A stretch of 64,000 nucleotides of DNA from an uncultured Candidatus Saccharibacteria bacterium (GCA_964495685.1 CAZBVQ010000001.1:169521-233520); one strand, 5' to 3'; shown: positions 7,485-59,088, counted from the first letter of the stretch. The notes: generated from the letters alone by a model not told the origin. A program made the numbers and translations.

Positions 7485-7495
7485 CAAAATATAGG

Positions 7496-39866: not shown

Positions 39867-39878
39867 TTCAGTATTCTT

Positions 39879-40505: not shown

Positions 40506-40534
40506 CCATGAATCCAACTTTTTCCATTTAACCT

Positions 40535-42205: not shown

Positions 42206-42935
42206 ATATATGACTATGAAACCACAGATTGTTATCGAGAATTATCAGGGTGCACACAATGCCAATCTTCCTCAGAGTCTGGATCGGCTCGAGAAGGGGA
42301 GGACATACAAAGATTTGTCGACGATCTGTATCGTGCCGACACGTGGTGTCATTCCCGCCAAGGTGGTCCAGAATTGGATGGGCATGATCCCGACCATGAA
42401 CCAGAAGTTCACTCGTATCTTCATGATCGGCATGGAAGTGGGGGAGGCGTACAATAGGGCGATTGAGGTCATACTAGGCAATCCAGAACTATCAAAATGG
42501 AAATACATTCTTACCCTCGAGGAGGACAATTTGCCACCACCAGATGGTCTGATTAAGTTGTATGAGAATATTGAGAATTATGCAGCTCTCGGGGGTCTCT
42601 ATTGGGTCAAAGGTGAAGGCGGTCAACCTATGATTTACGGAGATCCAGCCGAACCAGAGCTCAATTTCCGACCTCAACCCCCTAGGCAAGAGATCCAAGA
42701 GTGCAATGGCCTCGGCATGGGGTTTACTCTCTTCAAAACTGAAGTCTTCAAGGATCCGAAGCTGGAAAAGCCATGGTTCAAGACGTGTAATGAGTGGAGT
42801 CCAGATGGTGGCTCGAGAGTATATACTCAAGACCTCTATTTCTTTGAAAAGATTCGAAAATTGGGATACAAGGTTGCCTGTGATACGCGAGTCAAGGTCG
42901 GACATTATGATGTCGACAATGATGTCGTATGGTAA
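42195..42935 (+). CDS. Putative glycosyltransferase (GT-A fold-like)
   Basis: Acidic EEDN motif and C-terminal TQDLYFFEKIRKLGYKVACDTRVKVGHYD resembling GT2-family C-termini. Moderate certainty. Confidence 0.5.
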   Translation: MHSRYMTMKPQIVIENYQGAHNANLPQSLDRLEKGRTYKDLSTICIVPTRGVIPAKVVQNWMGMIPTMNQKFTRIFMIGMEVGEAYNRAIEVILGNPELSKWKYILTLEEDNLPPPDGLIKLYENIENYAALGGLYWVKGEGGQPMIYGDPAEPELNFRPQPPRQEIQECNGLGMGFTLFKTEVFKDPKLEKPWFKTCNEWSPDGGSRVYTQDLYFFEKIRKLGYKVACDTRVKVGHYDVDNDVVW

Positions 42936-42944
42936 TATATTCCT

Positions 42945-43934
42945 ATGTCTCGCTACCTGGTTATATTTCAAAGTATCGTTCTGGGCGTCCTTATCATCTT
43001 GTTTGTATCGTACAAGTCTCACCAGCGATTAAATACGCCGCCTGCGATTGTGAGTACTATTTCTGCATCGACCTCACCGCTCCGCATGTCCGCATCTCCA
43101 GCAGAATATCCATATTTGAGTCCCGTTATTGTCGCTGATCACGACAGACATTTCATTATCAATTTCAAGCCCTTGCGAGACAAACTGCAGGCGACTATGA
43201 ACGCACAAAAGAACAAAACGTATGTGTATTTCTTGTATCTCAACAACGCCAGTTGGATAGGTCTCAATGAAAAAGACTATTTCACTGCCGCAAGTACTAT
43301 CAAGGTGCCACTTGCCATGTCGATCTTGAAGTTTGCTGAGAAGGGCAGGGTCAAGATGACCGATTCATATACATTGACAGATCTCGATCTCGACCCCGGC
43401 TTTGGTGATTTGTATAAGGTAGGTCCTGATGGTAGCTTCACCCTCGATGAATTTGTGCAGATCATGTTGGAACACTCGGACAACACGTCAATGCGGGCTC
43501 TCTTCACGGTCATGAATATGATAGATATCAAGACGCCACTCGATGATATATACGCGGCTATGGGATGGGAACGTCCCAATAAAGGGGACAATTTGACGTA
43601 CATTGACATCAATCTGAAGACGCTGGCGAACATGTTCGTCTCTCTCTACAACGGCACGTATATCAACATAGACAATTCGAACAAACTCCTTGAGTATCTC
43701 GCACATTCTGACTTCAAAGATCAGATACCTGCTGGTGTGCCAGATAGTGTGAGCGTTGCGCACAAGATCGGCGTCAATGAGCCTAACAATACATACTCCG
43801 ATTGTGGCATTGTGTATGTGCCCGGTCGTCCCTATATTCTCTGTGTCGGCTCGGTAGGTGTACAAAAGAAAGTGGCTGATTCATTCATTTCGAAGATCTC
43901 GCGCACTGTCTATGAATATGTTATAACCAACTAA
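42945..43934 (+). CDS. Membrane-anchored class A beta-lactamase-like serine hydrolase
   Basis: N-terminal TM helix, then STIK (S-x-x-K), SDN (EHSDNTS), and HKIG (KTG-like) motifs in the correct order and spacing. Confidence 0.65.
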   Translation: MSRYLVIFQSIVLGVLIILFVSYKSHQRLNTPPAIVSTISASTSPLRMSASPAEYPYLSPVIVADHDRHFIINFKPLRDKLQATMNAQKNKTYVYFLYLNNASWIGLNEKDYFTAASTIKVPLAMSILKFAEKGRVKMTDSYTLTDLDLDPGFGDLYKVGPDGSFTLDEFVQIMLEHSDNTSMRALFTVMNMIDIKTPLDDIYAAMGWERPNKGDNLTYIDINLKTLANMFVSLYNGTYINIDNSNKLLEYLAHSDFKDQIPAGVPDSVSVAHKIGVNEPNNTYSDCGIVYVPGRPYILCVGSVGVQKKVADSFISKISRTVYEYVITN

Positions 43935-43936
43935 TC

Positions 43937-44479
43937 ATGAGTATATTCGGAAAGTTGGATGATAAGGGTATCAAGCTCGATATTGCCTGTGGCCAGAACA
44001 AGCAACCCGGCTTTGTTGGTATTGATATTGCACCAGGTCCTGGAGTGGATATTGTCTGGGATCTCGAGCAATATCCCTGGCCGATCAAAGACAATAGTGT
44101 CAAAGAGGCGTTCGTCAGCCACTACGCTGAGCACACAAAAGACTTGGTGAAGTTTATGAATGAGGTTTGGCGCATCTGTGAAGATGGTGCCAAACTCACC
44201 ATTCTTGGACCTTACTACACTTCTATTCGTTGTTGGCAAGATCCGACACACACACGTGCTCTCTCGGAAGCGACATGGTTGTATTATCAGAAGGCATGGC
44301 GTGAGGCCAACAGGCTCGATCACTATCCGATCACCTGTGACTACGAAGTGACCAATCTCATTTTGTATTTCAACGAGCCCTGGAATCAAAAGTCAGAAGA
44401 AGCAAAGCAGTTTGCAATCAAGCACTATTTTAATGTGGTCTCGGATATCCTAGTCGAACTGAAGGTAAAGAAGATATAA
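43937..44479 (+). CDS. Class I SAM-dependent methyltransferase
   Basis: Motif I LDIACGQNKQPGFVGIDI and an acidic motif II. Confidence 0.7.
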   Translation: MSIFGKLDDKGIKLDIACGQNKQPGFVGIDIAPGPGVDIVWDLEQYPWPIKDNSVKEAFVSHYAEHTKDLVKFMNEVWRICEDGAKLTILGPYYTSIRCWQDPTHTRALSEATWLYYQKAWREANRLDHYPITCDYEVTNLILYFNEPWNQKSEEAKQFAIKHYFNVVSDILVELKVKKI

Positions 44480-44489: not shown

Positions 44490-45002
44490 ATGGATTCACG
44501 CATATCCAAACTTCTACGCACCAATACGGCCTTGGTGTTGTTGTGTGTTATTGCGATATGCGCACTCATCTATACGTTGAAGGGGCGAGATGGTGAAGGA
44601 CAGATACCAGTGACACATTCTGTGCCGAAAATAGTACCTATTTCGACGGATTCATCTGAAAATTCTATTCAAGATATCATGGACAAGGTCCCTGAATCCT
44701 CTCCACTCAAACATGCCCCTGCAAAAGAGACGTTTGCTCAGTTTGTGTTTCAAGGACAAGCAACCACGTCAGTTGCACTTGAATGTACCGACATATACGA
44801 CGTTGTCTTGATATATCCCATAAATATCGAATACCGTGCGACACCCGTAGGTTCAGTCTACAACCGTGCCTTTCCGTGCCAGAAGAATACGTCTATGACA
44901 CGTACGATAGATGTGTCGACGGCACCGCTACACGCTAGTACAACTTATTACATCATTCGAGCACATCAGGGGATGCGAGGGACTTGGTATGGACCATACT
45001 AG
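44490..45002 (+). CDS. Hypothetical membrane-anchored secreted protein
   Basis: N-terminal TM, 170 aa. Confidence 0.45.
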   Translation: MDSRISKLLRTNTALVLLCVIAICALIYTLKGRDGEGQIPVTHSVPKIVPISTDSSENSIQDIMDKVPESSPLKHAPAKETFAQFVFQGQATTSVALECTDIYDVVLIYPINIEYRATPVGSVYNRAFPCQKNTSMTRTIDVSTAPLHASTTYYIIRAHQGMRGTWYGPY

Positions 45003-45021
45003 ACACGTACACACGTGTCCC

Positions 45022-45108
45022 CGCACCTCCTCATTCCTTCCTGACAAGCCGAAAATGTAGCCAGCGATCAGCGCTTTGAGGCTTGGAGGGGAGGAATGAG
45101 GACGTGCG
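45022..45108. repeat. 87 nt palindromic intergenic repeat (family B, copy 1)
   Basis: CGCACCTCCTCATTCC...GGAGGAATGAGGACGTGCG with inverted termini. Nearly identical to the copy at 46584..46670. Confidence 0.8.
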
Positions 45109-45164
45109 AGGACGAGCTCCGACAAGTAAACAAATAGAGATAAACGAAGTCTCTGCTATAATAG

Positions 45165-46559
45165 ATGGCAATGAAATCGAGATTGACTCTCGCGGTCGCT
45201 TTTGTCCTGTTGTTTATATGCGCAGGCTCGCTTGGCATGTTTTGGTCCGAGAATGTCGGGGCTGTCGATGCCTCCTCGACAAGCTTTTTTGTTCGTCAAA
45301 ATATCCTGCCCGTGGGCTCCAATAGTTATCCAGGTTCGACTGGTGCGGAACCGTTTTCGACGTCTACATCATTCAAGCTGGTCGGTGCAGGTAGCGAAAC
45401 GGCTGTAGGAACATCCACCTCTTCATCATTTGGTGTCATGGGCGGATTCTTGCGCAGTCTGTACTTCGGTCCAGCGCCACTCTACAATCAGATACATTAT
45501 CATTGGCGCAACGACGATGGCTCAGAGGCGGCGGCTACATCAAAAACAAGTGGTACACCTGATACGGACATTACGTCCTTGGCAAAATCGACCACAGTGC
45601 GTCTGCGCATTGAGATCTCGAATGAAGGCGGTACGAAGCTCGGGTACGCTTCCCAGCAGTTTCGTCTCGAATATGGTCTCAAGTCGACTACGTGCGCGGC
45701 TATAGTCTCGTGGACTGACGTCGGTGCTGCATCTGGAGATTGGGATCCATCGAATTCGAGCAACTTGACTGACGGAAATGACACGACCAATATTGCCGTA
45801 TCTACGGGCGGTGTCGCTGATGAAAATCATACGTTTCTCACCCCGAATGGTGGGGCCAAGGATACGGGTAGTCAGACTGCTGCTGTCAGTGTGACGAGTG
45901 AGCAGTTTATCGAATTGGAATACTCAATTCAGGCCCTATCGGCCGCAACTGATGGGGGAACGTATTGTTTCCGTGTGACGAATGCAGGTGGAGCGACTAC
46001 TCTCTACTCATATACTGCGTATCCACAGGCAACACTCGCATCTTCTGGGGGATACTTATATTTTTCACTCGATGGATCTACAGAGGCCTTCGGTAACATT
46101 ACTCCAGCTGTGCTAGCGGCGACTTCGAGTATTTTGACGGCGAGGACAGACAATTCGACTGGTTTCAATATAACTATTCAGCGAGCAGATTCTACAGGCA
46201 CCATGTCTTCTGGCTCGGTGTATATTCCTGACAAGACTGCATGGGTCCCGGGCGTGAATACGTCATCTGCAGGTAACGCAACAGCTTCGACTACTGAGCC
46301 GCAGACGTTGCAATTTCGTATACGTAATACAGGTACCGATGCGGCCAACTACTCATCTGCATGGTGGGGAACAGACGATACGACAGCCTCTGCCTTGTTC
46401 GCGGGTATCCCATCTACGGCTAGGAATATCGTCGACAGGTCGAGCTCTGCGGTCTCTACTACGACAGCATACGTCTTGTACAACTTGACTGTGCCAGTAA
46501 CTCAGCAAGCGGGCAGTTATTCGGGTAGTATTACCTATACAATTACAGCGAACCCTTGA
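45165..46559 (+). CDS. Secreted Thr/Ser-rich surface protein with C-terminal WxL-like domain
   Basis: Signal peptide. C-terminus AWWGTDD...GSYSGSITYTITANP resembles the WxL-domain C-terminal consensus, and the C-terminal half is paralogous to 46775..47470. Confidence 0.55.
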   Translation: MAMKSRLTLAVAFVLLFICAGSLGMFWSENVGAVDASSTSFFVRQNILPVGSNSYPGSTGAEPFSTSTSFKLVGAGSETAVGTSTSSSFGVMGGFLRSLYFGPAPLYNQIHYHWRNDDGSEAAATSKTSGTPDTDITSLAKSTTVRLRIEISNEGGTKLGYASQQFRLEYGLKSTTCAAIVSWTDVGAASGDWDPSNSSNLTDGNDTTNIAVSTGGVADENHTFLTPNGGAKDTGSQTAAVSVTSEQFIELEYSIQALSAATDGGTYCFRVTNAGGATTLYSYTAYPQATLASSGGYLYFSLDGSTEAFGNITPAVLAATSSILTARTDNSTGFNITIQRADSTGTMSSGSVYIPDKTAWVPGVNTSSAGNATASTTEPQTLQFRIRNTGTDAANYSSAWWGTDDTTASALFAGIPSTARNIVDRSSSAVSTTTAYVLYNLTVPVTQQAGSYSGSITYTITANP

Positions 46560-46583
46560 TGTGGATAACCCGGGGCATACCCC

Positions 46584-46670
46584 CGCACGTCCTCATTCAT
46601 TCCTGACAAGCCGAAAATGTAGCCAGCGATCAGCGCTTTGAGGCTTGGAGGGGAGGAATGAGGACGTGCG
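46584..46670. repeat. 87 nt palindromic intergenic repeat (family B, copy 2)
   Basis: Same orientation as copy 1, and the two copies bracket gene 45165..46559. Flanked by GTGGATAA on both sides. Confidence 0.8.
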
Positions 46671-46774
46671 GGGATACGTGTGGATAAGTGCCTAGGTCTG
46701 TTACGTGATATAATAGAAGAACTGAAATTAGGTTACGTAGTATAATTATTAGTATCGTTTAGTATATCCACATT

Positions 46775-47470
46775 ATGAGGCCAATCACATATACCATGAG
46801 CCAGAAGACGAAAGAGCGTCTTCAGACATTCGGTAGTGCGTTCGTTATCACGGCGATGCTCTTTTACTCAGTCATCTATGCAGTACAGGTGCATGCCAAC
46901 GCGGTGAGTTTGACTGCTACGATTCAGACAGCTATCACATTCACGACATCATCGAATGTATTCGGTAACGTGACTCCGGGTACTATCTCGTGGGCAACGA
47001 CTACACTTGATGTGGCCACCAACGATACCAATGGCTGGCTCGTCACTCTCTCTGGTGACAACAAGACGTCAGTCAATAATAACTTACAGACTGCTGGCAA
47101 CACGGCCTCTATCACTGATCAGACAGAGTGGGTACCTGGTGCCGCTACGACGACTACTGGCAATGCCGTCGTTCGTGCCTCGCTTGCCAACTCAGGCAAC
47201 GTGCTCGCGTTCCGAGTCATGACAGCCTCGAGTAGCAACGGCACTCCGTTTACGGCAAGTAGCTGGTGGGGAACTACTGACGCAGATGGTACGGCGAAAT
47301 GGGCAGGTATTGCCAGCTCGACAGTCGCACGTACTATCGGCAACGCAGGTACTGGTTCTTATAGCGCAAGCAACCACTTGAATACAGTCCAATACTACTT
47401 GCTCGTATCGGCCACGCAGGCATCAGGTGCATATACTGCTCCCTTGACATATACTGCTACGGCGAACTAA
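46775..47470 (+). CDS. Small secreted WxL-like domain protein (paralog of 45165..46559 C-terminal half)
   Basis: SSWWGTTD...GAYTAPLTYTATAN C-terminus and an N-terminal signal peptide. Confidence 0.55.
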   Translation: MRPITYTMSQKTKERLQTFGSAFVITAMLFYSVIYAVQVHANAVSLTATIQTAITFTTSSNVFGNVTPGTISWATTTLDVATNDTNGWLVTLSGDNKTSVNNNLQTAGNTASITDQTEWVPGAATTTTGNAVVRASLANSGNVLAFRVMTASSSNGTPFTASSWWGTTDADGTAKWAGIASSTVARTIGNAGTGSYSASNHLNTVQYYLLVSATQASGAYTAPLTYTATAN

Positions 47471-47479: not shown

Positions 47480-48412
47480 ATGAGATCCCGCCCCTCTTTT
47501 ATCGGCATCTGGACCGCCAGTGTTCTGGCGGTTTCAGCTATGCTGATCGGCGGGATACACTACGCACAAGCTGGTACTGGTCTCACGATACAGCCGATCA
47601 AGGTATCTCAAACTATGAAGCCAGGCGATCAGACTTCTGGCACGATTCGACTTTCCAATGCGAGTGATGAAGATGTTGTGGTCGAACTTTCGGTCCAGGA
47701 TTTCATTCCTGTTGCTGGTGCCGAAACATTCCAATTCGTTAGTCGTGCTCCAGGTGTGACGACTGTCCGTGACTGGATTACTTTTAATGATAAGAAGAAT
47801 TCATTCACATTCAAGCGGGGTGAGATCAAAGAAATTCCCTATGAAATAAAAGCACCACTCAATGCTGAGCCGGGCAGTCATTTCGGTGTACTTTTTTTCA
47901 AGGCAATAAAAGAGTCAGAAGCTCATTCCCAACTGAGGATTGGTACCCAGGTCGGCGTACTCGTTTTCGTTACCATTCCTGGTAAATTTGAGCAGAAGGG
48001 AACTATCAAGGGATTCGAAACCAAATCATTCTACCAAACCGCCCCCGTTTCTTTTGTGATGGAATTCGAAAATCAAGGGACGGTTCATTTCGAGCCAAAG
48101 GGTACCATTGATATCACCAACATGTTCGGGTCCAAGGTGGGATCTGTCCCTATAGAAGGCTATGCTGTTTTGCCGACGGGCGTCAAAAAGATGTCCTTCA
48201 GCTGGAATGTTGCTGGATTTCTGCTCGGCAAATACAGTGCCACGGCATCAGTGTATGATGTTGATGGCAATCTACTCTCGAAGGCATCTGCATCGTTTTG
48301 GGTCGTCCCTGTCTGGTACATAGTATCCTTCATTGTCATACTCCTTGTTCTATTCTTCGTCATTAGGTTTATCAAGAAACGTCTGAAATTCAGTATTAGT
48401 CTCAAGAAATAA
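47480..48412 (+). CDS. Cell-surface protein resembling DUF916/DUF3324 (CscA-like), with C-terminal TM anchor and basic tail
   Basis: Signal peptide, beta-rich ectodomain (GLTIQPIKVSQTMKPGDQTSGTIRLSNASDEDVVVELSV...GSHFGVLFFK), C-terminal TM helix plus KKRLKFSISLKK. Confidence 0.5.
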   Translation: MRSRPSFIGIWTASVLAVSAMLIGGIHYAQAGTGLTIQPIKVSQTMKPGDQTSGTIRLSNASDEDVVVELSVQDFIPVAGAETFQFVSRAPGVTTVRDWITFNDKKNSFTFKRGEIKEIPYEIKAPLNAEPGSHFGVLFFKAIKESEAHSQLRIGTQVGVLVFVTIPGKFEQKGTIKGFETKSFYQTAPVSFVMEFENQGTVHFEPKGTIDITNMFGSKVGSVPIEGYAVLPTGVKKMSFSWNVAGFLLGKYSATASVYDVDGNLLSKASASFWVVPVWYIVSFIVILLVLFFVIRFIKKRLKFSISLKK

Positions 48413-48426: not shown

Positions 48427-49935
48427 ATGAAAAAACTGGCCATCCTCATTGTTATAGGCGCCGTTCTCATTCCGCTCGGTCTCTACGCCAATAGTTTTAA
48501 CCTTACGGTCAGAATCTGTCAGGGGATAGATTGTGGCGACGAAACTCAGCCGTCTACGCCGACCAGCTTGTCAGTAACTGCGGTGACCGATTCGCAGGTC
48601 AATCTGGCATGGGATGCCTCGATTGATCCTGGTTCACCAGCATCGGGCATCATGTGGTATGCCGTATATCGCAATGGCAGTGTATCTCCTGTGGGTACAA
48701 CGACCGGCACCTCATATTCAGATACTGGACTGACCGAGGCGACTTCGTATACGTATACAGTGAGCGCACTCGACAATGCGTACAACGAGAGTGCGCAGAG
48801 TTCAAGTGTCTCGACAACTACACTCCTCACGCACCCTGAGATACCCAATCCTTCCAATGGTTCGCCGACGTCGCAACTTGCGGCAGGCACCACACAGACC
48901 ACGATGTCGCTCGACACGGATATAGCTGCCACGTGTCGATATGGCACTACTGCTGATACGGCATATGCGAGTCTACCCGATACGTTTTCTACTACGGGCG
49001 GAACATCGCATTCGACTGTTATTACTGGCCTTTCAAACGGGACCAATCGTACATTCTATGTGCGATGTCAGAGCTCGTATGGGGTACCGATGACGACTGA
49101 TTATATTATTTCGTTCTCCATCGCTTCGTCGGCAGGATCAAATGGCGGAGGGGGCGGCGGAGGTGGAGGGGGAGGCGGTGGTGCTGCAGGAGCCACGACC
49201 CCGATCAATCCGGTGAATGTGATCGTTCGCGGGGTGGCGTATCCGGGCAGTCACGTCAATCTCCTCAAAGATGGTCAACTTGCAGCTAGTACTCAGGCGG
49301 GACCTGACGCACGTTTCGAGATACAACTCTCTGGGGTGAGTAATGGCACGTATACATTCAGTGTGTGGGCGTCTGACAAGAATGGGGTACGATCGACGTT
49401 GTTCCCTTTCACTGTCACCCTTACATCAGGTGCAACGACGGTCATTAGTGGAGTCTTCATCGCACCGACAGTGAGTGTTGATTATGACACGATCAAGCGA
49501 GGTGACCCGCTTCACGTCATCGGTCAATCAGCGCCCAAGGCGACTGTTTCGGTCATATTCCATTCGGATACCGAAATTATTGAAGATGTGGCTACAGATC
49601 TCGATGGTATATGGACGTATGCCCTAGACACACTTCGCCTGGAGTATGGTGACCATACAGCTCAAGCTCGCTCAAAAAAAGAAAAAGATCTAAGTACACT
49701 CTCGAAAGCTATTACATTCAAAGTCGGTACACAGAGTATTGCCGCCAAGAAAGCACTAGGGTCGTTGAAGGGGGATCTCAATGGAGATGGCCGTGTCGAT
49801 CTAGCCGACTTCAGTATCATGTTGTATTGGTACAAGAGGACGCTCACGGCAAAAGCACCAACAGTCGATATGAATAATGACGGCAAAGTCGATTTGGTCG
49901 ATTTTAGTATCTTCGCGTTCAATTGGACAGGATAA
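48427..49935 (+). CDS. Secreted FN3-domain protein with poly-Gly linker, Ig-like domains and C-terminal dockerin-like module
   Basis: The FN3 region runs LSVTAVTDSQVNLAWDAS...YTYTVSALD. A 20-Gly run follows. The C-terminus carries two dockerin Ca-binding repeats: DLNGDGRVDLADFSIM and DMNNDGKVDLVDFSIF. Confidence 0.7.
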   Translation: MKKLAILIVIGAVLIPLGLYANSFNLTVRICQGIDCGDETQPSTPTSLSVTAVTDSQVNLAWDASIDPGSPASGIMWYAVYRNGSVSPVGTTTGTSYSDTGLTEATSYTYTVSALDNAYNESAQSSSVSTTTLLTHPEIPNPSNGSPTSQLAAGTTQTTMSLDTDIAATCRYGTTADTAYASLPDTFSTTGGTSHSTVITGLSNGTNRTFYVRCQSSYGVPMTTDYIISFSIASSAGSNGGGGGGGGGGGGGAAGATTPINPVNVIVRGVAYPGSHVNLLKDGQLAASTQAGPDARFEIQLSGVSNGTYTFSVWASDKNGVRSTLFPFTVTLTSGATTVISGVFIAPTVSVDYDTIKRGDPLHVIGQSAPKATVSVIFHSDTEIIEDVATDLDGIWTYALDTLRLEYGDHTAQARSKKEKDLSTLSKAITFKVGTQSIAAKKALGSLKGDLNGDGRVDLADFSIMLYWYKRTLTAKAPTVDMNNDGKVDLVDFSIFAFNWTG

Positions 49936-50858
49936 TGCCTATGATATTTTCCCGAAAAAGCATACGTATATGTACTCGAGCACTTTCCATCATTGTGGTG
50001 GCATTCCTGCCGCACGTCTTGCATGCGGCGAGTATTCAGTTCGACGGGTCGAGTCATACTGTCGGGACCAATTCACCATTCTTAGTACACCTGACTATTG
50101 ATTCCGATACGCCTGTCAATGCCATACGAGTTGTCATCGACATTCCTGAATATACCGATGTGGTCGACGTCTCAGACGGTAATTCTGTCATCAATATGTG
50201 GATAGAACGTCCGCATCTTATATCGCCGAGGCAGCTCGTATTCGCTGGTATTGTTCCGGGAGGATTCAAGGGCATTCGCGGTACACTGATCACCTTCGCG
50301 GCAAAGTCCTTCAAGGAGGGCAAGGGAAGTTTCATCGTCAATGCCTCGTCTCGGGTGTATGCCAATGATGAACATGCTACGCCGCAGACGATTACGTCTC
50401 GACCACTCGATCTCGCTTTCGTGAATGGTCGCGACAATGTAATAACAATTACCCCAGATCGCGCACCTCCCGAACCATTCAAGCCTATCCTGGTCAAGAT
50501 GCCAGATGGGGATGTGGGGAGTTGGGCGGTATCATTCGAGACGCAAGACAAAGACTCAGGGATTGCCTCGTATTCAGTAGTCGAGTCGGTCTCTAGGCAT
50601 GCCATCGATGCCACTGACACCATGCTGCGATTACCGTGGCGCGAAGTCGAAAGTCCGTACATTCTGGCTGATCAGCAGCTGCAATCATACGTCTATATCA
50701 AAGCGACTGACGTGATGGGTAACAGTCGTTTCGGATACATCGCACCCATCCACGGTCTTTCATGGTATCGAACGCCTGGAGGGTATATACTTATAGCGTT
50801 ACTCATTTTCACTGCGCTCTATGTCATCGCTCGTCGCCTACATGTGGTCACGCGTTAG
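49923..50858 (+). CDS. Membrane-anchored cohesin-like domain protein
   Basis: Signal peptide, then a beta-sandwich region with cohesin-like pattern (SIQFDGSSHTVGTNSPFLVHLTIDSD...VINMWIERP...GTLITFAAKSFKEG), and a C-terminal TM anchor. Confidence 0.5.
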   Translation: MDRIMPMIFSRKSIRICTRALSIIVVAFLPHVLHAASIQFDGSSHTVGTNSPFLVHLTIDSDTPVNAIRVVIDIPEYTDVVDVSDGNSVINMWIERPHLISPRQLVFAGIVPGGFKGIRGTLITFAAKSFKEGKGSFIVNASSRVYANDEHATPQTITSRPLDLAFVNGRDNVITITPDRAPPEPFKPILVKMPDGDVGSWAVSFETQDKDSGIASYSVVESVSRHAIDATDTMLRLPWREVESPYILADQQLQSYVYIKATDVMGNSRFGYIAPIHGLSWYRTPGGYILIALLIFTALYVIARRLHVVTR

Positions 50859-52263
50859 ACGCTCTCGCTGGGCGTCGGTTGTAATGGTTGTGGCCATTTT
50901 TCTTGTATATAGCCATGCGGTATCGGCTGCCACACTATCAGTCGTGCCACTAGGTGGATCGACCTACAGTGTCGGGCAACTTTTTTCTGTTGCCGTCATG
51001 GCGGGCGCCTCTGACGCTAGCCCGCTCAATGCGGTCTCTGGTGTATTGTCATACCCGACCAACGTGCTCCAAGTAGTATCGGTCGACAAGGGTGGCAGTA
51101 TCATCAATTTCTGGATAAGTGAACCAGCATATAGCAACGCCTCGGGTCGCGCACAGTTCGAGGGGGGAGTCTACAATCCTGGATTCGCTGGTGCCCAAGG
51201 TAAGGTGGTCACCTATCTTTTCAAAGTCAAAGCCGCAGGATCTGCCGACATTGGTTTTGCCACGGCGTCTATCCTCGCTAATGATGGACAGGGTACCAAT
51301 ATTCTCGAGCGCACGATTCCAGCGCGTCTTGTACTGACTGCTGGATCGTCTGACGAAACATCAGTGCCTGATTCGGTCGTGCCGATTCCTGGTGTGGCTA
51401 TACGTTCTGGTACACATCCAGATCAGAGCGCCTGGTACAATTCGACGATGGTGGCTCTGGCCTGGGATCTCCCTACGGGTGCGATGGCGGTGCGTACGGG
51501 TCTCGACCAGAGTATTCGTTCGAATCCGACGACGCTCGCCCCATCTCTTATTTCCGAGACGACATTCAATGTCGGTGAGGGCACGTGGTATTTCCATGTA
51601 CAGATCAAGGATGTACAAGGGTGGGGTCCGGTGTCTACGTTCAGGATCAATGTCGATACTACAGCGGTCAACCCTCCGGTTTTCGACAGATTCCCAGCTA
51701 TCCTGACCGAAGGAGAAGTTCTCTTGATATCGGGTATCGCGCCGAAGAATGCGTTGGTCACGCTCACGTTGGGGGACTCGCATGGTGAGAAACAGCAACA
51801 GTCTGCCAAAGCGGGTGATGATGGTAGATTCCAAGCAGTGTGGCAGCGTGAGTTGGGGAGTGATTCATATACCTTGAATGCGGAGGCGGTCAGTAGTAGA
51901 GGGATCAAAAGTTCTCGCAGTCAGGATATGGTCATCACAGTTCAGCCGACAGCGCTCCAGCGTGTAGCTCGTCCGGCACTCAACTACGCGACCATGTTTG
52001 CACTCGTCGCTGGTCTCATATTCCTGTGCGTTCTCTGGACCTGGTATCTGATCCAGCATTTCCGTCATTTCCGCAAGAAAGTACGTGCTGATGTGAAGCG
52101 CGCCAATCAGCTCATTCATGTCGAATTCAAGAAAGTGCTCGATCAAGCACGCGGCAAGCGTCGCCTGACCGCTGAGGAGGAGCGCATGCTCTCAATGATC
52201 CGTGAAGGTATCCATGACATCGAAGAGGAAGTGGAGAAAGATGTCCGCGAGATAGGGCAGTGA
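50821..52263 (+). CDS. Membrane-anchored cohesin-like domain protein (paralog of upstream gene) with C-terminal TM and cytoplasmic coiled tail
   Basis: TLSVVPLGGSTYSVGQLFSVAV...VLSYPTNVLQVVSVDKGGSII...GKVVTYLFKVKAAGSADIGF matches the cohesin family pattern. A C-terminal TM helix follows. Confidence 0.55.
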   Translation: MSSLVAYMWSRVRRSRWASVVMVVAIFLVYSHAVSAATLSVVPLGGSTYSVGQLFSVAVMAGASDASPLNAVSGVLSYPTNVLQVVSVDKGGSIINFWISEPAYSNASGRAQFEGGVYNPGFAGAQGKVVTYLFKVKAAGSADIGFATASILANDGQGTNILERTIPARLVLTAGSSDETSVPDSVVPIPGVAIRSGTHPDQSAWYNSTMVALAWDLPTGAMAVRTGLDQSIRSNPTTLAPSLISETTFNVGEGTWYFHVQIKDVQGWGPVSTFRINVDTTAVNPPVFDRFPAILTEGEVLLISGIAPKNALVTLTLGDSHGEKQQQSAKAGDDGRFQAVWQRELGSDSYTLNAEAVSSRGIKSSRSQDMVITVQPTALQRVARPALNYATMFALVAGLIFLCVLWTWYLIQHFRHFRKKVRADVKRANQLIHVEFKKVLDQARGKRRLTAEEERMLSMIREGIHDIEEEVEKDVREIGQ

Positions 52264-52386: not shown

Positions 52387-54333
52387 ATGAAACGGAAGGC
52401 TGGGAAGGCCATTGCATCGGTACGGACTGCGACGAAAGGGAAACGCGCATCGTCGAGGCTTTCCGCCCCCGCATCTCGCCCCAAAGTGGGCAAACTCAGT
52501 CACAAATACATATTCGTTATCGGTGGTGTCATGTCTGGCGTCGGTAAGGGCGTAGCTACATCATCTATCGGTACACTCTTGGGCGCCAAGGGATTCAAGG
52601 TCAATCTGGTCAAGGTGGATCCGTACTTGAATGTGGATGCTGGCACCATGAATCCGATCGAGCACGGCGAAGTGTTCGTACTCAATTCAGGCCTAGAAAC
52701 AGATCAAGATATGGGCAACTATGAGCGCTTCCTCAATCGTGATCTGACAGGTGACGACTATATTACGAGTGGCATGGTCTATAAGCACGTGATCGAGAAG
52801 GAGCGTGCGCTCGGCTATGGCGGCAAGTGTGTTGAAGCTGTCCCACATATTCGTGATGAGATCGTCAGACGTTTCGAACATTCCGCCAAAGTAAACAAGT
52901 CAGATGTCTCCATCATCGAGATCGGTGGTACAGTCGGTGACTATCAAAACATCATGTTCATCGAGGCGGCACGCGCCCTCAAGATTCGTCACCCGCACGA
53001 TGTGGCTTTCATCATGGTTTCGTATTTGCCGACACCGGGGACGCTCGGTGAGATGAAGACGCGACCGACACAAAATGCGGTGCACCAGCTGGCTTCATAT
53101 GGTGTCACTACTGATATTGTGATTGCTCGTGCCTCGACACCGCTCGATGAGCGCCGCAAAGAGAAGATAGCAACGGCTTGCAATATTTTGTCGCGCCGTG
53201 TCATTTCGGCGCCTGATATCAAGAGTATCTATGATGTACCGGTCAATTTCGAGGCCGATAAGCTGGCAGATATCATCCTCGAAGTGTTGCATGTCGATCG
53301 GGAGACTACGTCTGCGCTCAGTAAGACACCCATCATTTCTCTTGCTGATTGGAAGAAGATGGCGCGCGGCATCAAGAATCGTGATGGGGCAGAGCTCAAT
53401 ATAGCCATCGTGGGCAAGTATTTCAATACAGGAGATTTCGTCCTGACTGATGCGTATCTATCGGTCTTGGAGGCGGTGAAGTTTTCGGCATACGCAGTCG
53501 GAGTGAAGGCCAATATTTATACGATCAATGCGAGGGATTTCGAGAATGAAAAATCATCCACCTTCGCCAAGGCTACGGCGGACAAGAAAGGCAAAGGGCA
53601 AAAGTCCAAACAGGAGACATTCCCGTATGGCAAATTGGATGACATGGACGGCATCATTGTGCCGGGTGGTTTCGGCGAATCTGGTATCGAAGGCAAGCTC
53701 AATGTCATCCGCTACGCTCGTGAGAATGGTATTCCATACTTCGGTCTCTGCTACGGTATGCAGCTCATGACCATCGAGTATGCCCGCAACGTTCTCGGTC
53801 TCAAGGGTGCACATACTGCCGAGATTGATCCGAAGTCGCCACATCTCATCATCGACATCATGCCTGACCAGAAAAAGAAGATTGCTGAGGGCAATTATGG
53901 TGGTTCGATGCGTCTCGGTCTCTATCCGGCCAAATTACTCAAGGGGTCACTTGCGCAGCGTGCGTATTCATATTTCGGCAACACCAAGCTCGATCGCCCG
54001 ACGACCACCATCAAAGAGCGTCACCGCCATCGCTACGAGGTCAATCCTGCCTATATCGAGCGACTGGAGAAGGCGGGTTTGATATTCTCGGGCAAGTCTC
54101 CCAACGGCACTCTGATGGAGATCGCTGAATTGCCCAATGCGATGCACCCCTTCTTCCTCGGTACACAGTTCCATCCGGAGCTTCTGGCACGACCACTTAT
54201 GCCACATCCTTTGTTCACGGAGTTCATGCGCGCTGCGCGGGATCGCAACAAGCAGATGGATCGTGTGGCGCTGATGCAGATCCAGGAGCCTGTTGAGGGT
54301 GATATGATTCGTAACGTTGAGGATGATTTCTAG
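52387..54333 (+). CDS. pyrG: CTP synthase PyrG (annotated ATG gives about 40 aa N-terminal extension; GTG ~52484 possible start)
   Basis: N-terminal KYIFVIGGVMSGVGKG synthase domain and C-terminal glutamine amidotransferase with GLCYGMQ catalytic Cys and the His/Glu region. Confidence 0.95.
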   Translation: MKRKAGKAIASVRTATKGKRASSRLSAPASRPKVGKLSHKYIFVIGGVMSGVGKGVATSSIGTLLGAKGFKVNLVKVDPYLNVDAGTMNPIEHGEVFVLNSGLETDQDMGNYERFLNRDLTGDDYITSGMVYKHVIEKERALGYGGKCVEAVPHIRDEIVRRFEHSAKVNKSDVSIIEIGGTVGDYQNIMFIEAARALKIRHPHDVAFIMVSYLPTPGTLGEMKTRPTQNAVHQLASYGVTTDIVIARASTPLDERRKEKIATACNILSRRVISAPDIKSIYDVPVNFEADKLADIILEVLHVDRETTSALSKTPIISLADWKKMARGIKNRDGAELNIAIVGKYFNTGDFVLTDAYLSVLEAVKFSAYAVGVKANIYTINARDFENEKSSTFAKATADKKGKGQKSKQETFPYGKLDDMDGIIVPGGFGESGIEGKLNVIRYARENGIPYFGLCYGMQLMTIEYARNVLGLKGAHTAEIDPKSPHLIIDIMPDQKKKIAEGNYGGSMRLGLYPAKLLKGSLAQRAYSYFGNTKLDRPTTTIKERHRHRYEVNPAYIERLEKAGLIFSGKSPNGTLMEIAELPNAMHPFFLGTQFHPELLARPLMPHPLFTEFMRAARDRNKQMDRVALMQIQEPVEGDMIRNVEDDF

Positions 54334-54359
54334 GCCGGGTCTGAACAAATGTATTTTAT

Positions 54360-54974
54360 ATGACTCTCAAAGATATTATTAAATTCAGCACACTACTTAC
54401 AAAGCTTCAGAATACAAAGAGGGTCATTTATGTATGCAATGAAAATCGCCTAGAAAATGACGTTGAACATAGCTATATGCTCGCTATGCTGGCATGGTAT
54501 TTCGTTGAAAGCGACCATTTGGATTTGGATGTTGCCAAGATTATACAGTACGCAATGGTACACGATTTGGTAGAAGTATATGCAGGCGATGTGTATCTCT
54601 ATGAAACCAATCAGACAATACGGAATAACAAACACAAAAAGGAACGTCAGGCCGCAGCACGTATCAGAAGAGAATTCCCGAAGTTTCAACAACTTCATAC
54701 TCTTATTCAGGCGTATGAGGGAAAAGTGGATGCTGAAAGTAAGTTCGTGTACGCCTTAGATAAAGTTCAGCCAGTTATTCAGATTTATCTTGATCGAGGA
54801 CGCACGTGGAACAAAAAGAAAATAACATTGAAAATGCTTATTGATGCAAAAAAAGACAAGGTCGCACTGTCAAAACCAGTTCGGCACGCATTTGATGAAC
54901 TCGTTTCTTTTTTGAAACATAGGGAGAAAAAGTTATTCAAATTTAAATATCATGACCCAAGAACACGAAGTTAA
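54360..54974 (+). CDS. HD-domain phosphohydrolase (YfbR-like 5'-deoxynucleotidase family)
   Basis: HD motif residues in VEHSYMLA...MVHDLVEVYAGD. The gene is AT-rich. Confidence 0.75.
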   Translation: MTLKDIIKFSTLLTKLQNTKRVIYVCNENRLENDVEHSYMLAMLAWYFVESDHLDLDVAKIIQYAMVHDLVEVYAGDVYLYETNQTIRNNKHKKERQAAARIRREFPKFQQLHTLIQAYEGKVDAESKFVYALDKVQPVIQIYLDRGRTWNKKKITLKMLIDAKKDKVALSKPVRHAFDELVSFLKHREKKLFKFKYHDPRTRS

Positions 54975-55539
54975 AGTCCTAAATATCGACGTTGCTGACA
55001 TTACACGCAAGCTCAAAAAGATTGGCGCCAAGAAGAAGGGTGACTTCTTTTATCGTTCGTGTTCCTTCGACTATGAAGGATTTCCGCTGGATAAGAAGAT
55101 GTCATGGATACGTCTGCGCGATGAGGGCGACAAGGTCCGTCTCGCGTACAAGCGTCGACTGGGTGTGAAATCCAGTAAGGGTGATGATGCTGGCATGGAG
55201 GAGATTGAGTTTGATGTTGGTCACTATGACAAAGCACGGCATTTCCTACACAAGATCGGCCTTATTCTCAAATTTGGCCAGGAGAAGAAACGTACTCGCT
55301 GGGTCAAAGGGAATATTGAGTTTGATATAGATACGTGTCCACGACTGGCGCCTTATCTGGAAATAGAAGGGAAGACCGAGGCTGCGATGAAGCGGGGCAT
55401 CAAGCTACTGGGCATAGATCCCCAAAATTGTAGGCGTTTTTCGACGACACAGCTTTATGAGATGCAAGGTATTCGCGACAAGGACTACATTTCCATGACT
55501 TTCGATGAGTTTGTGAAGAGAGATGGTAAGCGGAAATAA
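54952..55539 (+). CDS. CYTH-domain protein (CyaB-like triphosphate tunnel metalloenzyme / class IV adenylyl cyclase family)
   Basis: N-terminal EHEVKV (ExExK motif), WIRLRDEGDKVRLAYKRR, and C-terminal acidic IEFDID...LEIEG. It overlaps the HD gene by 23 nt. Confidence 0.75.
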   Translation: MTQEHEVKVLNIDVADITRKLKKIGAKKKGDFFYRSCSFDYEGFPLDKKMSWIRLRDEGDKVRLAYKRRLGVKSSKGDDAGMEEIEFDVGHYDKARHFLHKIGLILKFGQEKKRTRWVKGNIEFDIDTCPRLAPYLEIEGKTEAAMKRGIKLLGIDPQNCRRFSTTQLYEMQGIRDKDYISMTFDEFVKRDGKRK

Positions 55540-55575
55540 TTCTAGGTCGGGCCTAGAATTTGCTACAATATAGCC

Positions 55576-56454
55576 ATGACTATTGGCATCGGTATCGGTC
55601 TCGCATTTGTCGCCATGCTCTGTTGGGGTTTCGGCGATTTTCTTATTCAGAAGTCCACTAGGAAGCTCGGGGATTGGGAGACACTGTTCATCATTACTGG
55701 GATTGGCGCTGTTCTGCTCCTGCCGTTCGTCTGGCATTCACTCGGTCAACTCTGGCAGGCGGATAGCCACGTCTGGACAGTACTCATCGGTGCGTCACTC
55801 GTCCTATTCGTTGCTGCATTACTCGAATTCGAGGCTCTGCGTCGTGGTAAGCTGGCGGTCGTCGAGCCTATTTGGTCTTTCGAAATACCTGCGGCAGCGG
55901 TACTGGCCTACCTATTCTTGGGAGAACATATCACCTGGTTCCAGATCGTCCTAGCTGTCATGCTCATTGTCTCGCTGGCGTTCGTTTCATTCCGCGGCAA
56001 GAAATTTACACTTAGATTTTTCATCGAGCGTGGCGTCATCATCTCGTTCATCTCCGCGATCGCCATGGGCTGTGCCAACTTCTTCATGGGATGGGGTGGG
56101 CGAGTGGCTGATCCGCTCATGGTCAACTTCTTCACTGACGTGGCGCTGATGCTCATGTGTGGTCTCTATCTAGTCATTCATGGCAAGCTCGGCTCAGTCT
56201 TTTCGGATATTCGCCACGGCTTCGCTACAGTTATACCCATGTCTATTGCCGACAAGGCCGCTTGGGTGGCGTATGTCTTCTCCATGTCGCTTATCCCGAT
56301 CGCGGTAGCTACGGCACTCTCGGAAAGCTATATCATCATCGCGGTACTCCTCGGCTTGTTCGTTAACAAGGAGCGACTTCAGGGACACCAGAAAATAGGG
56401 CTTATTACAGCCATTATAGCGGCCATTGTTCTTGCTTCTACGACATCAGTATAG
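55576..56454 (+). CDS. EamA/DMT-family transporter
   Basis: 10-TM protein with duplicated EamA-like halves. Confidence 0.75.
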   Translation: MTIGIGIGLAFVAMLCWGFGDFLIQKSTRKLGDWETLFIITGIGAVLLLPFVWHSLGQLWQADSHVWTVLIGASLVLFVAALLEFEALRRGKLAVVEPIWSFEIPAAAVLAYLFLGEHITWFQIVLAVMLIVSLAFVSFRGKKFTLRFFIERGVIISFISAIAMGCANFFMGWGGRVADPLMVNFFTDVALMLMCGLYLVIHGKLGSVFSDIRHGFATVIPMSIADKAAWVAYVFSMSLIPIAVATALSESYIIIAVLLGLFVNKERLQGHQKIGLITAIIAAIVLASTTSV

Positions 56455-57062: not shown

Positions 57063-58004
57063 ATGCTATATTTGCTTTGCTTATACCCCATGTTCACCAT
57101 CCTGCTTTTCTATAAATACGTCGAAATCACCGACCCCCAAGCTCTGGCTGACACCCAGCGAGCTCTCTGTGAGCGACTCTCTCTCCGTGGGCGCATCATT
57201 GTGGCTCATGAAGGCATCAATGCTACACTCGAAGGTACCACCGAAATGATCACTGCATACTGTGCTGAGCTGACCGCTGATCCACGGTTCGCCGATGTGC
57301 ACCTCAAGAAGAGTGTCGGCACCGGCAAAGCATTCCCCAAGCTTTCTATCAAAGTCAGAAAAGAAATCGTCACCCTCGGACTTCCTGCAACGCGAGATAT
57401 CGATCCGCGTACCACCACAGGGAAGTACCTCAGTCCACAGCAGTTGCAGGAATGGTTCGCCGCCGGCAAAAAGTTCAAGATCGTCGATATGCGTAATGAC
57501 TATGAGCACAAGGTCGGGCACTTCAAGGGCTCCGTCCTGCCACCACTCCACAATTTCCGTGACTTGCCCAAGGCGCTTCCGACATTGGAGCCCCTCAAAC
57601 ATGAGACCGTCCTCACCGTCTGTACTGGTGGTGTGCGCTGTGAGAAGGCTTCTGGCTTCTTGGTCAAGAATGGCTTCACTGATGTCTACCAACTCGCTGG
57701 CGGTATCGTGAGCTACATGGAGCAGTTCGAACGCTCCGCCGACGGTAGTCGTCCTGCCCAGAATTTCCTCGGCTCGCTCTACGTCTTCGATGATCGGGTG
57801 ACTATGGCATATGCCTCACCAGTCGAGCGTCCCGTCATCGGGAGCTGTGCCGTCTGCGCCGCGCCTACCGAGACCTATATCAACTGCGCCCATGACGTCT
57901 GTCACAAACATTTCCTCGTCTGTGCCGGCTGCGAGCGAGAGGGGATGCTGTGCCCTGATGGCGATCATTCCAGCGTTGTCGGCTTGAATAAAGTGTCAAA
58001 ATAG
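57063..58004 (+). CDS. trhO: Rhodanese-domain tRNA uridine(34) hydroxylase TrhO/YceA family (ORF track start 56871 is an overextension)
   Basis: FYKYVEITDP...LRGRIIVAHEGINATLEG signature of UPF0176/YceA, a rhodanese active site CTGGVRCEKAS, and a C-terminal Cys-rich tail. Confidence 0.85.
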   Translation: MLYLLCLYPMFTILLFYKYVEITDPQALADTQRALCERLSLRGRIIVAHEGINATLEGTTEMITAYCAELTADPRFADVHLKKSVGTGKAFPKLSIKVRKEIVTLGLPATRDIDPRTTTGKYLSPQQLQEWFAAGKKFKIVDMRNDYEHKVGHFKGSVLPPLHNFRDLPKALPTLEPLKHETVLTVCTGGVRCEKASGFLVKNGFTDVYQLAGGIVSYMEQFERSADGSRPAQNFLGSLYVFDDRVTMAYASPVERPVIGSCAVCAAPTETYINCAHDVCHKHFLVCAGCEREGMLCPDGDHSSVVGLNKVSK

Positions 58005-58128
58005 CGTATTTTGTATGGGTTCGTTACAAAACGCCCTAAACTTGCTCTGCTTCCCGTGCTTGCACTGCGAAGCTTGAGTGAAGCGAAAGCGTAGCAGCCC
58101 TCCTTCGCCAAGGCTACGGAGGATACAA

Positions 58129-58199
58129 TGCGGGATCGTCTAATGGTAGGACACAGCTCTCTGAAAGCTGGTATCTTGGTTCGAGTCCAAGTCCCGCAG
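58129..58199 (+). tRNA. tRNA-Gln (CUG)
   Basis: U1-A72 acceptor (TGCGGGA/TCCCGCA), D-arm of Glx type, anticodon loop CTCTGAA, discriminator G. Confidence 0.8.
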
Positions 58200-58219
58200 C
58201 AATAATTAAAACCTATACA

Positions 58220-58912
58220 ATGCAACTATTTTTATCAGGTGGAGGAGATAGCGACAAATCATTTGAATACGATAAAAAATTTATCGAAGCAATTGATACA
58301 ACAAAACCAGTTTTATATATCCCCATCGCAATGCCGCAAGAGACCCATTCTTATGGAGACTGTCTGAAATGGGTTAAGAATAATTTCAAACCTTTTTCGT
58401 TCGATAATTTTGTCATGTGGACAGAGGAAGATTTGAAGATCAAGAAAATTGAAGATTTTAAACAATTTGGTGGGATTTATATTGGCGGCGGGAATACTTT
58501 TAAACTTCTAAAAGAACTAAAGGAATTTGGAACCGTAGAAATACTTATTGAATTGGCAAAACAAAATATTCCAATTTTTGGCGGAAGCGCCGGTGCAATC
58601 ATTTGGGGTAAAACAATATGCACGGCAATTGGTTATGACGACAATGAAGTCCGACTATCCGATTTCTCTGCTTTTAATAAGGTATTTGGTTATGAAATAT
58701 GGTGCCATTATTTAATTGAATCAGAAAAGAGCAAGGTCATCGAATACATGTCCAAATACAAACTTAAAAAAGTAATTGTGATGCCTGATGATGCAGGGAT
58801 AATTGTTAGGGAATCTTCAATTGAATTCGTTGGACCCGCAGCCTCGTGGATTTTTGATGAAGAGGGAGTAAGAGAAATAAAAGCTGGAAGTGTAATTAAT
58901 GTTGTTGCATAA
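58220..58912 (+). CDS. Peptidase S51 family (dipeptidase E / cyanophycinase-like)
   Basis: LFLSGGG...IYIGGGNTF...GGSAGAII motifs. AT-rich, lying immediately downstream of tRNA-Gln. Confidence 0.75.
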   Translation: MQLFLSGGGDSDKSFEYDKKFIEAIDTTKPVLYIPIAMPQETHSYGDCLKWVKNNFKPFSFDNFVMWTEEDLKIKKIEDFKQFGGIYIGGGNTFKLLKELKEFGTVEILIELAKQNIPIFGGSAGAIIWGKTICTAIGYDDNEVRLSDFSAFNKVFGYEIWCHYLIESEKSKVIEYMSKYKLKKVIVMPDDAGIIVRESSIEFVGPAASWIFDEEGVREIKAGSVINVVA

Positions 58913-59048
58913 AATGCAGACCGAGACACATCGTTTCAATATATAAAATTATGCTAGTGTACTTTTACAAGGTCTTACCCCATTTGGTTCTAGACCGAAG
59001 AACACAGCACGAGTCAACGTAGTATCGAGGCTTAGACCGGAGAGCCTC

Positions 59049-59082
59049 AAACAAAAATATCCCTTGAGGGATATTTTTGTTT
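59049..59082. terminator. Perfect 34 nt palindrome AAACAAAAATATCCCT-T-GAGGGATATTTTTGTTT (bidirectional terminator)
   Basis: Lies between the convergent S51 peptidase and recombinase genes. Confidence 0.65.
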
Positions 59083-59088
59083 CCCTCG

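Follow-up and report, generated by a model that had tools for sequence, protein, structure and literature searches.

A 64,000-nucleotide (nt) stretch of DNA from an uncultured Candidatus Saccharibacteria bacterium (GCA_964495685.1, CAZBVQ010000001.1:169521-233520), referred to here as the window, carries three consecutive genes at positions 48427-52263 that encode a secreted dockerin protein, DOC, and two membrane proteins with cohesin domains, CohS and CohL. The trio most likely ties a surface stalk or a pilus to the cell membrane and does not serve to organise sugar-degrading enzymes, and it appears to be a membrane-anchoring module conserved across Patescibacteria. The best reading of the domain content and gene order, and on balance a probable one, is that the dockerin plugs into the membrane cohesins and so holds the stalk protein at the cell surface.

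DOC (48427-49935, + strand) is 502 amino acids (aa) in length. A signal peptide (aa 1-21) is followed by a lone strand with a mini Cys loop, NSFNLTVRICQGIDCGD (aa 22-38; nt 48490-48540), an FN3 domain (aa 43-128), a second FN3-like region (aa ~135-230) and a Gly-rich linker (aa 231-258) with 13 consecutive glycines at aa 240-252. Two immunoglobulin (Ig) domains, Big_6 (aa ~259-335) and Big_13 (aa ~336-432), lead to the dockerin (aa 440-502; nt 49744-49932), which ends in ...WTG at the stop codon. Pfam matches are above the cut-off for Dockerin_1 (30.2 bits, cut-off 22.9, E 5.2e-7), fn3 (31 bits, cut-off 25) and Big_6 (28.9 bits, cut-off 27.6), and narrowly below it for Big_13 (25.6 bits, cut-off 27). 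A dockerin was taken to consist of two tandem segments, each with a calcium loop of the form D-x-[DN]-x-[DN]-G-x-[IV]-[DN]-x-x-D and then a helix. The two DOC loops, DLNGDGRVDLAD and DMNNDGKVDLVD, have D/N/D/D/D at positions 1, 3, 5, 9 and 12, each is followed by FSI, and they are the sole dockerin-type loops in the six frames of the 64-kb window. In addition, a profile of the C-terminal 250 residues of the DOC family matches solved dockerins over both repeats (2y3n_B, E 3.8e-4; also 5nrm_B, 1daq, 2mte and 4fl4_A). By these domain tests DOC is a dockerin protein. It has no membrane helix beyond the signal peptide.

The conserved core of the DOC family is the Gly-rich tether, the two Ig domains and the dockerin, and the core alignment shows the dockerin to be the best-conserved part across distant lineages. 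The N-terminal region is variable. The window protein has two FN3-type domains, many loci have a small Cys-rich module, and others have an STSF-repeat module with an FN3 domain, a large insert, or no head at all. The second Ig domain has a conserved V-K-R-G-D/E stretch (IKRGD in the window, ~49480-49500, aa ~352-358), which may be structural rather than an adhesion motif.

CohS (49923-50858, + strand, 311 aa) is the shorter of the two cohesin proteins; its probable start is the ATG at 49941, since the nearest homologue begins there. An N-terminal signal peptide precedes the cohesin domain (aa 35-168; nt 50025-50426), an Ig-like domain (aa 187-275) and a membrane helix (aa 285-305; nt 50775-50837) with a six-residue basic tail. 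CohL (50821-52263, + strand, 480 aa) consists of a signal peptide (aa 1-36), a cohesin domain (aa 37-173; nt 50929-51339), two Ig/FN3-like domains (aa 193-280 and 290-376; Big_13 in Pfam), a membrane helix (aa 390-412; nt 51988-52056) and a conserved helical tail, predicted to be cytoplasmic (aa 413-480; nt 52057-52260). The tail is a pair of conserved helices with L440, R447, L449, T450, E453 and E468 near-invariant and with a near-invariant R-x-L-T-x-x-E motif, which reads RLTAEE in the window protein. CohS has no equivalent of it.

The two proteins are paralogues, with 28% identity over 194 aa in BLASTP (E 2e-13) and a match between their family profiles at 99.9% (E 1.7e-37). The cohesin fold was taken to be a nine-stranded beta-sandwich of the jelly-roll type. 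The AlphaFold model of CohS (predicted local distance difference test score, pLDDT, 81) finds cohesins as nearly all of its best solved matches. The top match, at E 1.9e-9, is 2w1n, a cohesin paired with FN3; 2xdh, a non-cellulosomal cohesin, is matched with a template modelling (TM) score of 0.78 and a root-mean-square deviation of 2.7 A, and 6kgc, 5m2o and 1anu are further cohesins on the list. In the CohL model (pLDDT 86) the cohesin is followed by two Ig-type domains, a long membrane helix and a cytoplasmic helix of ~68 residues; the best solved match of this model is again 2w1n, and the cohesin dyads 3l8q, 3kcp and 4fl4 appear amid generic Ig chains. Pfam Cohesin (PF00963) is matched at E<0.01 by 11 of 28 CohL-family members, the best at 1.8e-6, and several CohL homologues are named 'cohesin domain-containing protein' by NCBI. 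CohS thus carries a cohesin domain as judged from its predicted fold, with cohesins as the best solved matches, and CohL carries one as judged from a weak Pfam match, the clearer matches of its homologues and the profile link to CohS. At the fold and family level, both are cohesin-fold proteins.

These results bear on a preliminary description of the same DNA. Its statement that a secreted protein of 502 aa ends in a dockerin with two canonical loops agrees with the Pfam search, where PF00404 is matched above the curated cut-off, and the two downstream genes are, as it proposed, paralogues with cohesin ectodomains, structure prediction giving 2w1n as the best solved match for each. The search with PF00963 gave a mixed picture, as neither window protein reaches the cut-off and the family support comes from the homologues of CohL. 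C-terminal membrane anchors had been assigned to both proteins; each does have one C-terminal helix, but CohL does not end there.

Relatives of CohL are encoded in at least 552 stretches when one genome is scanned for each species. Among the matches listed, the closest is from Taylorbacteria (64%), and the informatively named carriers are Patescibacteria (Paceibacterota, Jorgensen-, Magasanik-, Wolfe-, Nomura- and Sungbacteria, and Microgenomatus), with the cultured archaeal parasite Microsyncoccus archaeolyticus among them; a few binned genomes bear other phylum labels, which are unchecked. The Ig-Ig-dockerin core of DOC is found in at least 1,537 clusters (90% identity) at E<=1e-5. In most of the clusters listed PF00404 and PF17936 are annotated, and the name 'dockerin type I repeat-containing protein' is given to several. 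A search of 1.84 billion representatives (50% identity) gives 487 matches to the core at E<=1e-30, and in nearly all of the best 150 the match reaches the last residue. The domains themselves are not new, because database pipelines already label them and NCBI names members.

Gene order was compared in the open reading frames (ORFs) of 83 related loci (numbered with the prefix L) and the window, searched with profiles built from the window proteins. Exactly one dockerin ORF is found in 70 of these sources, always with the dockerin at the extreme C-terminus and ...WTG at the stop, and no second dockerin lies within 10 kb in the 83 loci and the window. Cohesin ORFs number two in 70 sources, one in nine, which are cut contigs, and three in five, so that the number of cohesins is not strictly two. 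At least two same-strand cohesin genes lie downstream of DOC in 69 of 70 cases, with median gaps of 2 and -28 nt. The third cohesin gene of L003 (11173-12543, - strand) is on the opposite strand and scores 41.6 bits on Pfam Cohesin, well above the cut-off; a third gene is also found in L017, L039 and L063.

Cohesin and dockerin domains are present, and a partial NCBIfam match of DOC (aa 23-191 only, spanning the FN3 domain) is to the exoglucanase CbhB. A miniature cellulosome-like complex for the breakdown of polysaccharides is nevertheless highly improbable. Pfam and NCBIfam detect no catalytic or carbohydrate-binding domain in DOC, CohS or CohL, and Pfam detects no glycoside hydrolase in the gene cluster, and neither a glycoside hydrolase nor a carbohydrate-binding domain in the ten flanking genes that were scanned (36982-44479 and 52387-56454). 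There is one cohesin per protein and one dockerin per locus, and the anchor is a membrane helix, not an S-layer homology (SLH) domain or a sortase signal. The cellulosome was therefore rejected on domain content, as the locus has no multi-cohesin scaffoldin, carbohydrate-binding module or dockerin-bearing glycoside hydrolases. The type I and type II pairs of Clostridium thermocellum (CipA, SdbA, OlpB) do share with the trio a C-terminal dockerin with a duplicated loop, a beta-sandwich cohesin on a cell-bound partner and, as likely purpose, a strong non-covalent attachment to the cell. They differ in that the trio has no enzymes or carbohydrate-binding module, no multi-cohesin scaffold but a single cohesin per protein, one dockerin to two cohesins, a membrane-helix anchor in place of SLH repeats or sortase, and a Patescibacteria host. 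The best structural matches of CohS are non-cellulosomal, the GH84C cohesin-FN3 of Clostridium perfringens (2w1n) and the cohesin of Archaeoglobus fulgidus (2xdh). The first has the same order of a cohesin and then an FN3/Ig domain as CohS, and in both systems the pair is used outside cellulose breakdown; their cohesins, however, are on soluble enzymes or unanchored proteins, and not on single-pass membrane proteins of a pilus operon.

The three genes are the last of seven consecutive + strand genes at 44.5-52.3 kb, and a CTP synthase gene (52387-54333) is next downstream. From g231 on the genes are tightly packed, with gaps of 9 and 14 nt and then few bases or overlaps. The ORF calls are the longest ORFs, and the ends of signal peptides were judged by hand. 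All seven proteins begin with a hydrophobic signal-like segment. A second hydrophobic helix, C-terminal and followed by basic residues, is present only in g310, CohS and CohL, a pattern that is, at the sequence level, that of proteins with their bulk outside the cell. In the closest relatives (L001 and L004-L006) the order of all seven genes, with CTP synthase after them, is the same.

The genes upstream of DOC resemble those of a pilus. The Pam pilus, known since 2026 from a Saccharimonadia parasite, has pilins joined by donor-strand exchange (bioRxiv 10.64898/2026.03.03.709456). Its parts are the pilins PamA/B/E/T, the membrane-anchored chaperones PamC/D, which are PapD-like and retain a C-terminal membrane helix, and PamR, proposed to be terminator and anchor, in which an N-terminal strand is combined with two FnIII domains and a membrane helix; Pam pilins are found mostly in Saccharimonadia and Microgenomatia (bioRxiv 10.64898/2026.03.03.709456). 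In the window, g464 (45165-46559, + strand) encodes a large pilin-like protein. Its signal peptide and STSF-repeat module (aa 37-100; nt 45273-45464) are separated by a middle stretch rich in beta structure from the C-terminal domain (aa 308-463; nt 46086-46553), which is that of a Pam-like pilin. Orthologues of g464 are 461 to 685 aa in length. The same C-terminal domain (hidden Markov model score 196.7 bits) is found in g231 (46775-47470, + strand), a small Pam-type pilin-like protein with a signal peptide and an extra N-terminal strand, VSLTATIQ (aa 44-51; nt 46904-46927). The NCBIfam model CPR_Pam_pilin_C (NF058581) is matched by 7 of 11 members of the g231 family, and the program hhalign aligns this family with Pam-type major pilins that are above the cut-off (96.8%, E 2.6e-10), placing its N-terminal strand against their linker strand. 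Pilins of related loci with the same trio score 52-132 bits on CPR_Pam_pilin_C (cut-off 55). Strong Pam pilins lie upstream of g310 in L007, L008, L017, L029, L044 and L057, and there are partial matches to the PamT model as well. The upstream genes of the window are thus, by sequence, remote relatives of the Pam pilus and not members by the NCBIfam threshold.

The next gene, g310 (47480-48412, + strand), is a candidate pilus chaperone in which a signal peptide precedes a beta-rich ectodomain and a membrane helix (aa 280-298) lies at the C-terminal end. Its match to Pfam WxLIP_PGBD is weak (E 0.02), and 12 of 24 family members match this model, the best at E 2.1e-8. No NCBIfam Pam model matches g310, and none named for Pam matches g310, DOC, CohS or CohL of three loci that have strong Pam pilins. 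The g310 and pilin profiles gave no useful match to solved structures. In its layout of signal peptide, beta domains and C-terminal helix, g310 is similar to CscA (DUF916/WxLIP) of the WxL/Csc systems of Lactobacillales. These systems differ in that no WxL-domain or LPXTG protein was detected by Pfam or NCBIfam among the cluster proteins, and Csc clusters are without cohesin and dockerin.

The 49 non-redundant loci in which DOC is preceded by at least 4 kb of DNA fall mainly into two types. In type 1 (33 loci, the window included) g310 is directly upstream of DOC, and 23 of the 33 have at least two genes with the pilin C-terminal domain. Type 2 (14 loci) has the trio without pilins and without g310, which indicates that the module can work without a pilus. 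The remaining two are of neither type. The 54-residue STSF-repeat module occurs exactly once per locus in 31 loci; it is carried by a pilin-like gene in 14, by DOC in 16 and by an unlabelled ORF in one. When only the loci with sufficient upstream DNA are counted, DOC carries it in no type 1 locus and in 13 of the 14 type 2 loci. An STSF head that is either on a pilin or directly on the dockerin stalk would be expected if both types were anchored by the dockerin-cohesin pair and the pilus were an optional extension.

The preliminary description regarded the three genes as a self-contained attachment system. This fits the 14 type 2 loci and does not fit the window itself, where pilin-like and chaperone-like genes lie upstream as in the other type 1 loci. 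It also held the system to be separate from glycoside hydrolases, with which the Pfam scan is in accord, and noteworthy for a small genome; the genome is of the Patescibacteria type, but the number of CohL relatives shows that the system is not rare.

The N-terminal strand of DOC provides a possible link between pilus and trio. In type 1 loci, mature DOC starts with a single alternating strand (such as VNISATV, VSVTATV, VEITATV or TLTVTV; SFNLTVRI in the window). Minimal DOC proteins (L007, L009, L012, L044 and L076) consist only of a signal peptide, one such strand (for example VNLTVTI or ISISANV), a Gly/Pro tether, the two Ig domains and the dockerin. In Pam-type major pilins the strand DDQVAV[ST]ATV immediately precedes the C-terminal domain, and the extra N-terminal strand of small pilins, that of g231 included, is of the same kind. 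With a matrix built from pilin strands, 22% of DOC N-termini score at least 10 bits, against 1-2% of CohS, CohL, g310 and other ORFs. Similarly, when pilin strands are compared with N-termini from the same locus, the mean best BLOSUM score is 15.7 for DOC, 10.0 for CohS, 10.3 for g310 and 12.3 for CohL. The tests are supportive, not strong, and suggest a modest donor-strand signal.

On the basis of this resemblance, DOC is proposed as the end and anchor of the pilus, similar to PamR. DOC would be secreted, and its calcium-binding C-terminal dockerin would bind the extracellular cohesin of CohS, of CohL or of both, which would be single-pass membrane proteins with the cohesin outside the cell. 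The link would fix the two-Ig stalk and its N-terminal cargo without a covalent bond to the wall. In type 1 loci the DOC strand would insert into the groove of the terminal pilin, so that the pilus would grow no further; DOC would then be the last pilus subunit, with the dockerin tying the filament to the membrane cohesins, and DOC and cohesin together would be a split, two-piece equivalent of PamR. A load-bearing anchor would be well served by the strength of cohesin-dockerin binding, which in some pairs ranks with the strongest non-covalent bonds measured between proteins. Perhaps, then, a wall-poor, ultra-small bacterium holds its pilus by a cohesin-dockerin plug, with DOC as terminal subunit and its donor strand in the last pilin. 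This extension to the pilus is put forward tentatively, as something that may well turn out otherwise.

The variability of DOC raises the question of whether the dockerin-cohesin pair merely displays the N-terminal domains of DOC as an adhesin, with pilus genes that are co-regulated and not physically joined to it. Widely variable N-termini are expected of exposed heads, the window protein has two FN3-type domains between strand and stalk, and the 14 loci without pilin or chaperone genes, 13 of them with an STSF head on DOC, fit such a display. On the other hand, several DOC proteins are headless, with one short strand on a Gly/Pro tether, and would make little sense as a displayed adhesin; the strand is closer to pilin donor strands than are control N-termini; and the g310-DOC-CohS-CohL order is tight and conserved in 33 of 49 loci. 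Stand-alone display is in accord with the type 2 loci, though not with headless DOC proteins, and as the explanation of the trio as a whole it is unlikely.

The comparison with PamR leads to a further possibility, that CohS and CohL are not dockerin receptors but a pilus anchor or assembly platform, possibly the PamR counterpart, and that the dockerin binds host-surface glycans or another calcium-dependent partner. CohS has the same outline as PamR, two beta-sandwich domains and a C-terminal membrane helix. In the run from pilin to cohesin genes of 12 type 1 loci, only g310, CohS and CohL have both a signal peptide and a C-terminal membrane helix, so that no separate PamR-like gene is found in that run. 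Both window cohesins are below the Pfam sequence threshold, and a different dockerin protein is essential in a cultured Saccharibacterium, where the authors suggested glycan targeting (PMC10633639). A dedicated dockerin-cohesin pair, however, best fits the 1:2 ratio of dockerin to cohesins, the fact that the genes are adjacent in 69 of 70 cases and the lack of any other dockerin or cohesin nearby. The dockerin is also the most conserved part of DOC in distant lineages, which points to a conserved partner within the cell's own proteome. To our knowledge, the dockerin partners in characterised systems are cohesins, and this too counts against a non-cohesin partner. We regard this possibility as quite improbable, and binding of the dockerin to the membrane cohesins is still the preferred reading.

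Several points weigh against that binding or against its extension to the pilus. CohL of the window scores 18.4 bits on Pfam Cohesin (cut-off 24.1, E 0.0027), CohS has no Pfam match of any kind, and the family profiles of both reach no solved cohesin by sequence. The assignment of this dockerin to these cohesins is based on gene neighbourhood. The model does not account for two cohesins per internally symmetric dockerin, nor for the tail of CohL. As to the pilus, g231 scores 22 bits on CPR_Pam_pilin_C (E 1.3e-4), below the cut-off of 55, g464 has no direct NCBIfam Pam pilin match, 14 of the 49 loci have the trio without pilins or g310, and the Pam paper makes no mention of cohesin or dockerin (bioRxiv 10.64898/2026.03.03.709456). 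The strand matrix is built from only 13 unique pilin strands, and most DOC N-termini score low with it; the best score of the window DOC is 3.5 bits and is not at the strand itself. The excess for DOC and pilin strands of the same locus is small (15.7 against 14.2 in shuffled pairs, p = 0.013), and DOC cleavage sites were judged by eye.

The resemblance to Pam lies in the upstream genes, where the pilin C-terminal domains are of the Pam type and the candidate chaperone has a C-terminal membrane helix, and in the parts list that DOC and cohesin share with PamR, namely an N-terminal strand, Ig/FN3 domains and a membrane helix. It differs in that these parts are split over two or three proteins that would be joined by the dockerin-cohesin pair, and in that the closest relatives of the window, among the matches listed, are Paceibacteria-type genomes. 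No single gene here has the strand, two FnIII domains and the helix, and the relationship to PamR is a functional parallel and not membership. The role proposed for DOC, that of a final subunit which ends growth and attaches the fibre to the cell, is shared with PapH of chaperone-usher pili and with Gram-positive basal pilins. PapH, however, stays at the outer-membrane usher, and the basal pilins of sortase pili are joined covalently to peptidoglycan by the housekeeping sortase; the link of DOC would be a non-covalent protein plug to a cytoplasmic-membrane protein. No description of a trio of one dockerin and two cohesins, of its membrane-anchored layout or of its position at the end of a Pam operon was found in the literature searched.

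The first gene of the conserved cluster, g170 (44490-45002, + strand), encodes a small protein with a single N-terminal membrane or signal segment (hydrophobic aa 12-30). Orthologues are found at the same position in 13 loci, and there is no match in Pfam or NCBIfam. Farther upstream, at 37959-42935 (+ strand), four consecutive ORFs without Pfam matches (635, 208, 556 and 246 aa) follow an FtsX gene. The ORF of 635 aa is picked up by the g170 profile, which suggests a shared domain.

A 94-nt palindromic element flanks g464 in two copies that are 97% identical (45019-45112 and 46581-46674, + strand). The copies fold as very stable hairpins (-62 and -70 kcal/mol, z ~-7) with no U-tract behind. 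The element is the sole repeat family of at least 40 nt in the window and is absent from all 83 related loci; no Rfam family is above threshold, and there is only a generic similarity to microRNA hairpins. The hairpins could set the stability of the pilin mRNA or mark a swappable gene cassette. The 11-mer TGTGGATAAGT (46679-46689, + strand), a single exact copy in the window, lies ~86 nt upstream of g231 and is found at the same relative place in three related genome groups (L001, 5903-5913; L004, 5766-5776; L005, 5704-5714). It may act on the transcription unit from g231 to CohL, as promoter element or as regulator site.

Elsewhere in the window, ARAGORN reports a tRNA-Ile(TAT) and a tRNA-Ser whose anticodon, ACT, is unusual, at 7411-7485 and 12764-12849; the latter tRNA-Ser is divergent from the normal tRNA-Ser(GCT) at 12568-12655. 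The GC content drops from ~0.50 to ~0.39 over the last 6 kb (58001-64000). Two leads from other genomes were set aside. SEML1_0315 of Southlakia epibionticum, an essential dockerin protein of 927 aa, is encoded by a solitary gene in another context. The 'peptidoglycan-binding domain' proteins that are highly expressed in archaea-parasitising Paceibacteria could not be connected with the operon; among them, PMX_810_sub_00350 is a lone gene of 692 aa.

Patescibacteria are a large share of bacterial diversity, and how they attach to their hosts is a central open question. Pam is the only structurally defined pilus of the group that is not of type IV, and its membrane anchoring is still a model. 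The trio is a concrete candidate for such an anchor and offers a functional reading for at least 1,500 clusters of hypothetical or domain-only proteins. If the binding is true, cohesin-dockerin biology would be extended from enzyme assembly to mechanical anchoring, and a large natural set of small, divergent cohesin-dockerin pairs would be available for protein engineering. If the pilus is also held in this manner, the plug would be the first structural, load-bearing use of cohesin and dockerin outside enzyme complexes, and a third way of fixing a pilus to the cell, besides outer-membrane ushers and linkage to the wall by sortase. One socket would then take either a pilus or a directly fused adhesin head, in agreement with the two locus types.

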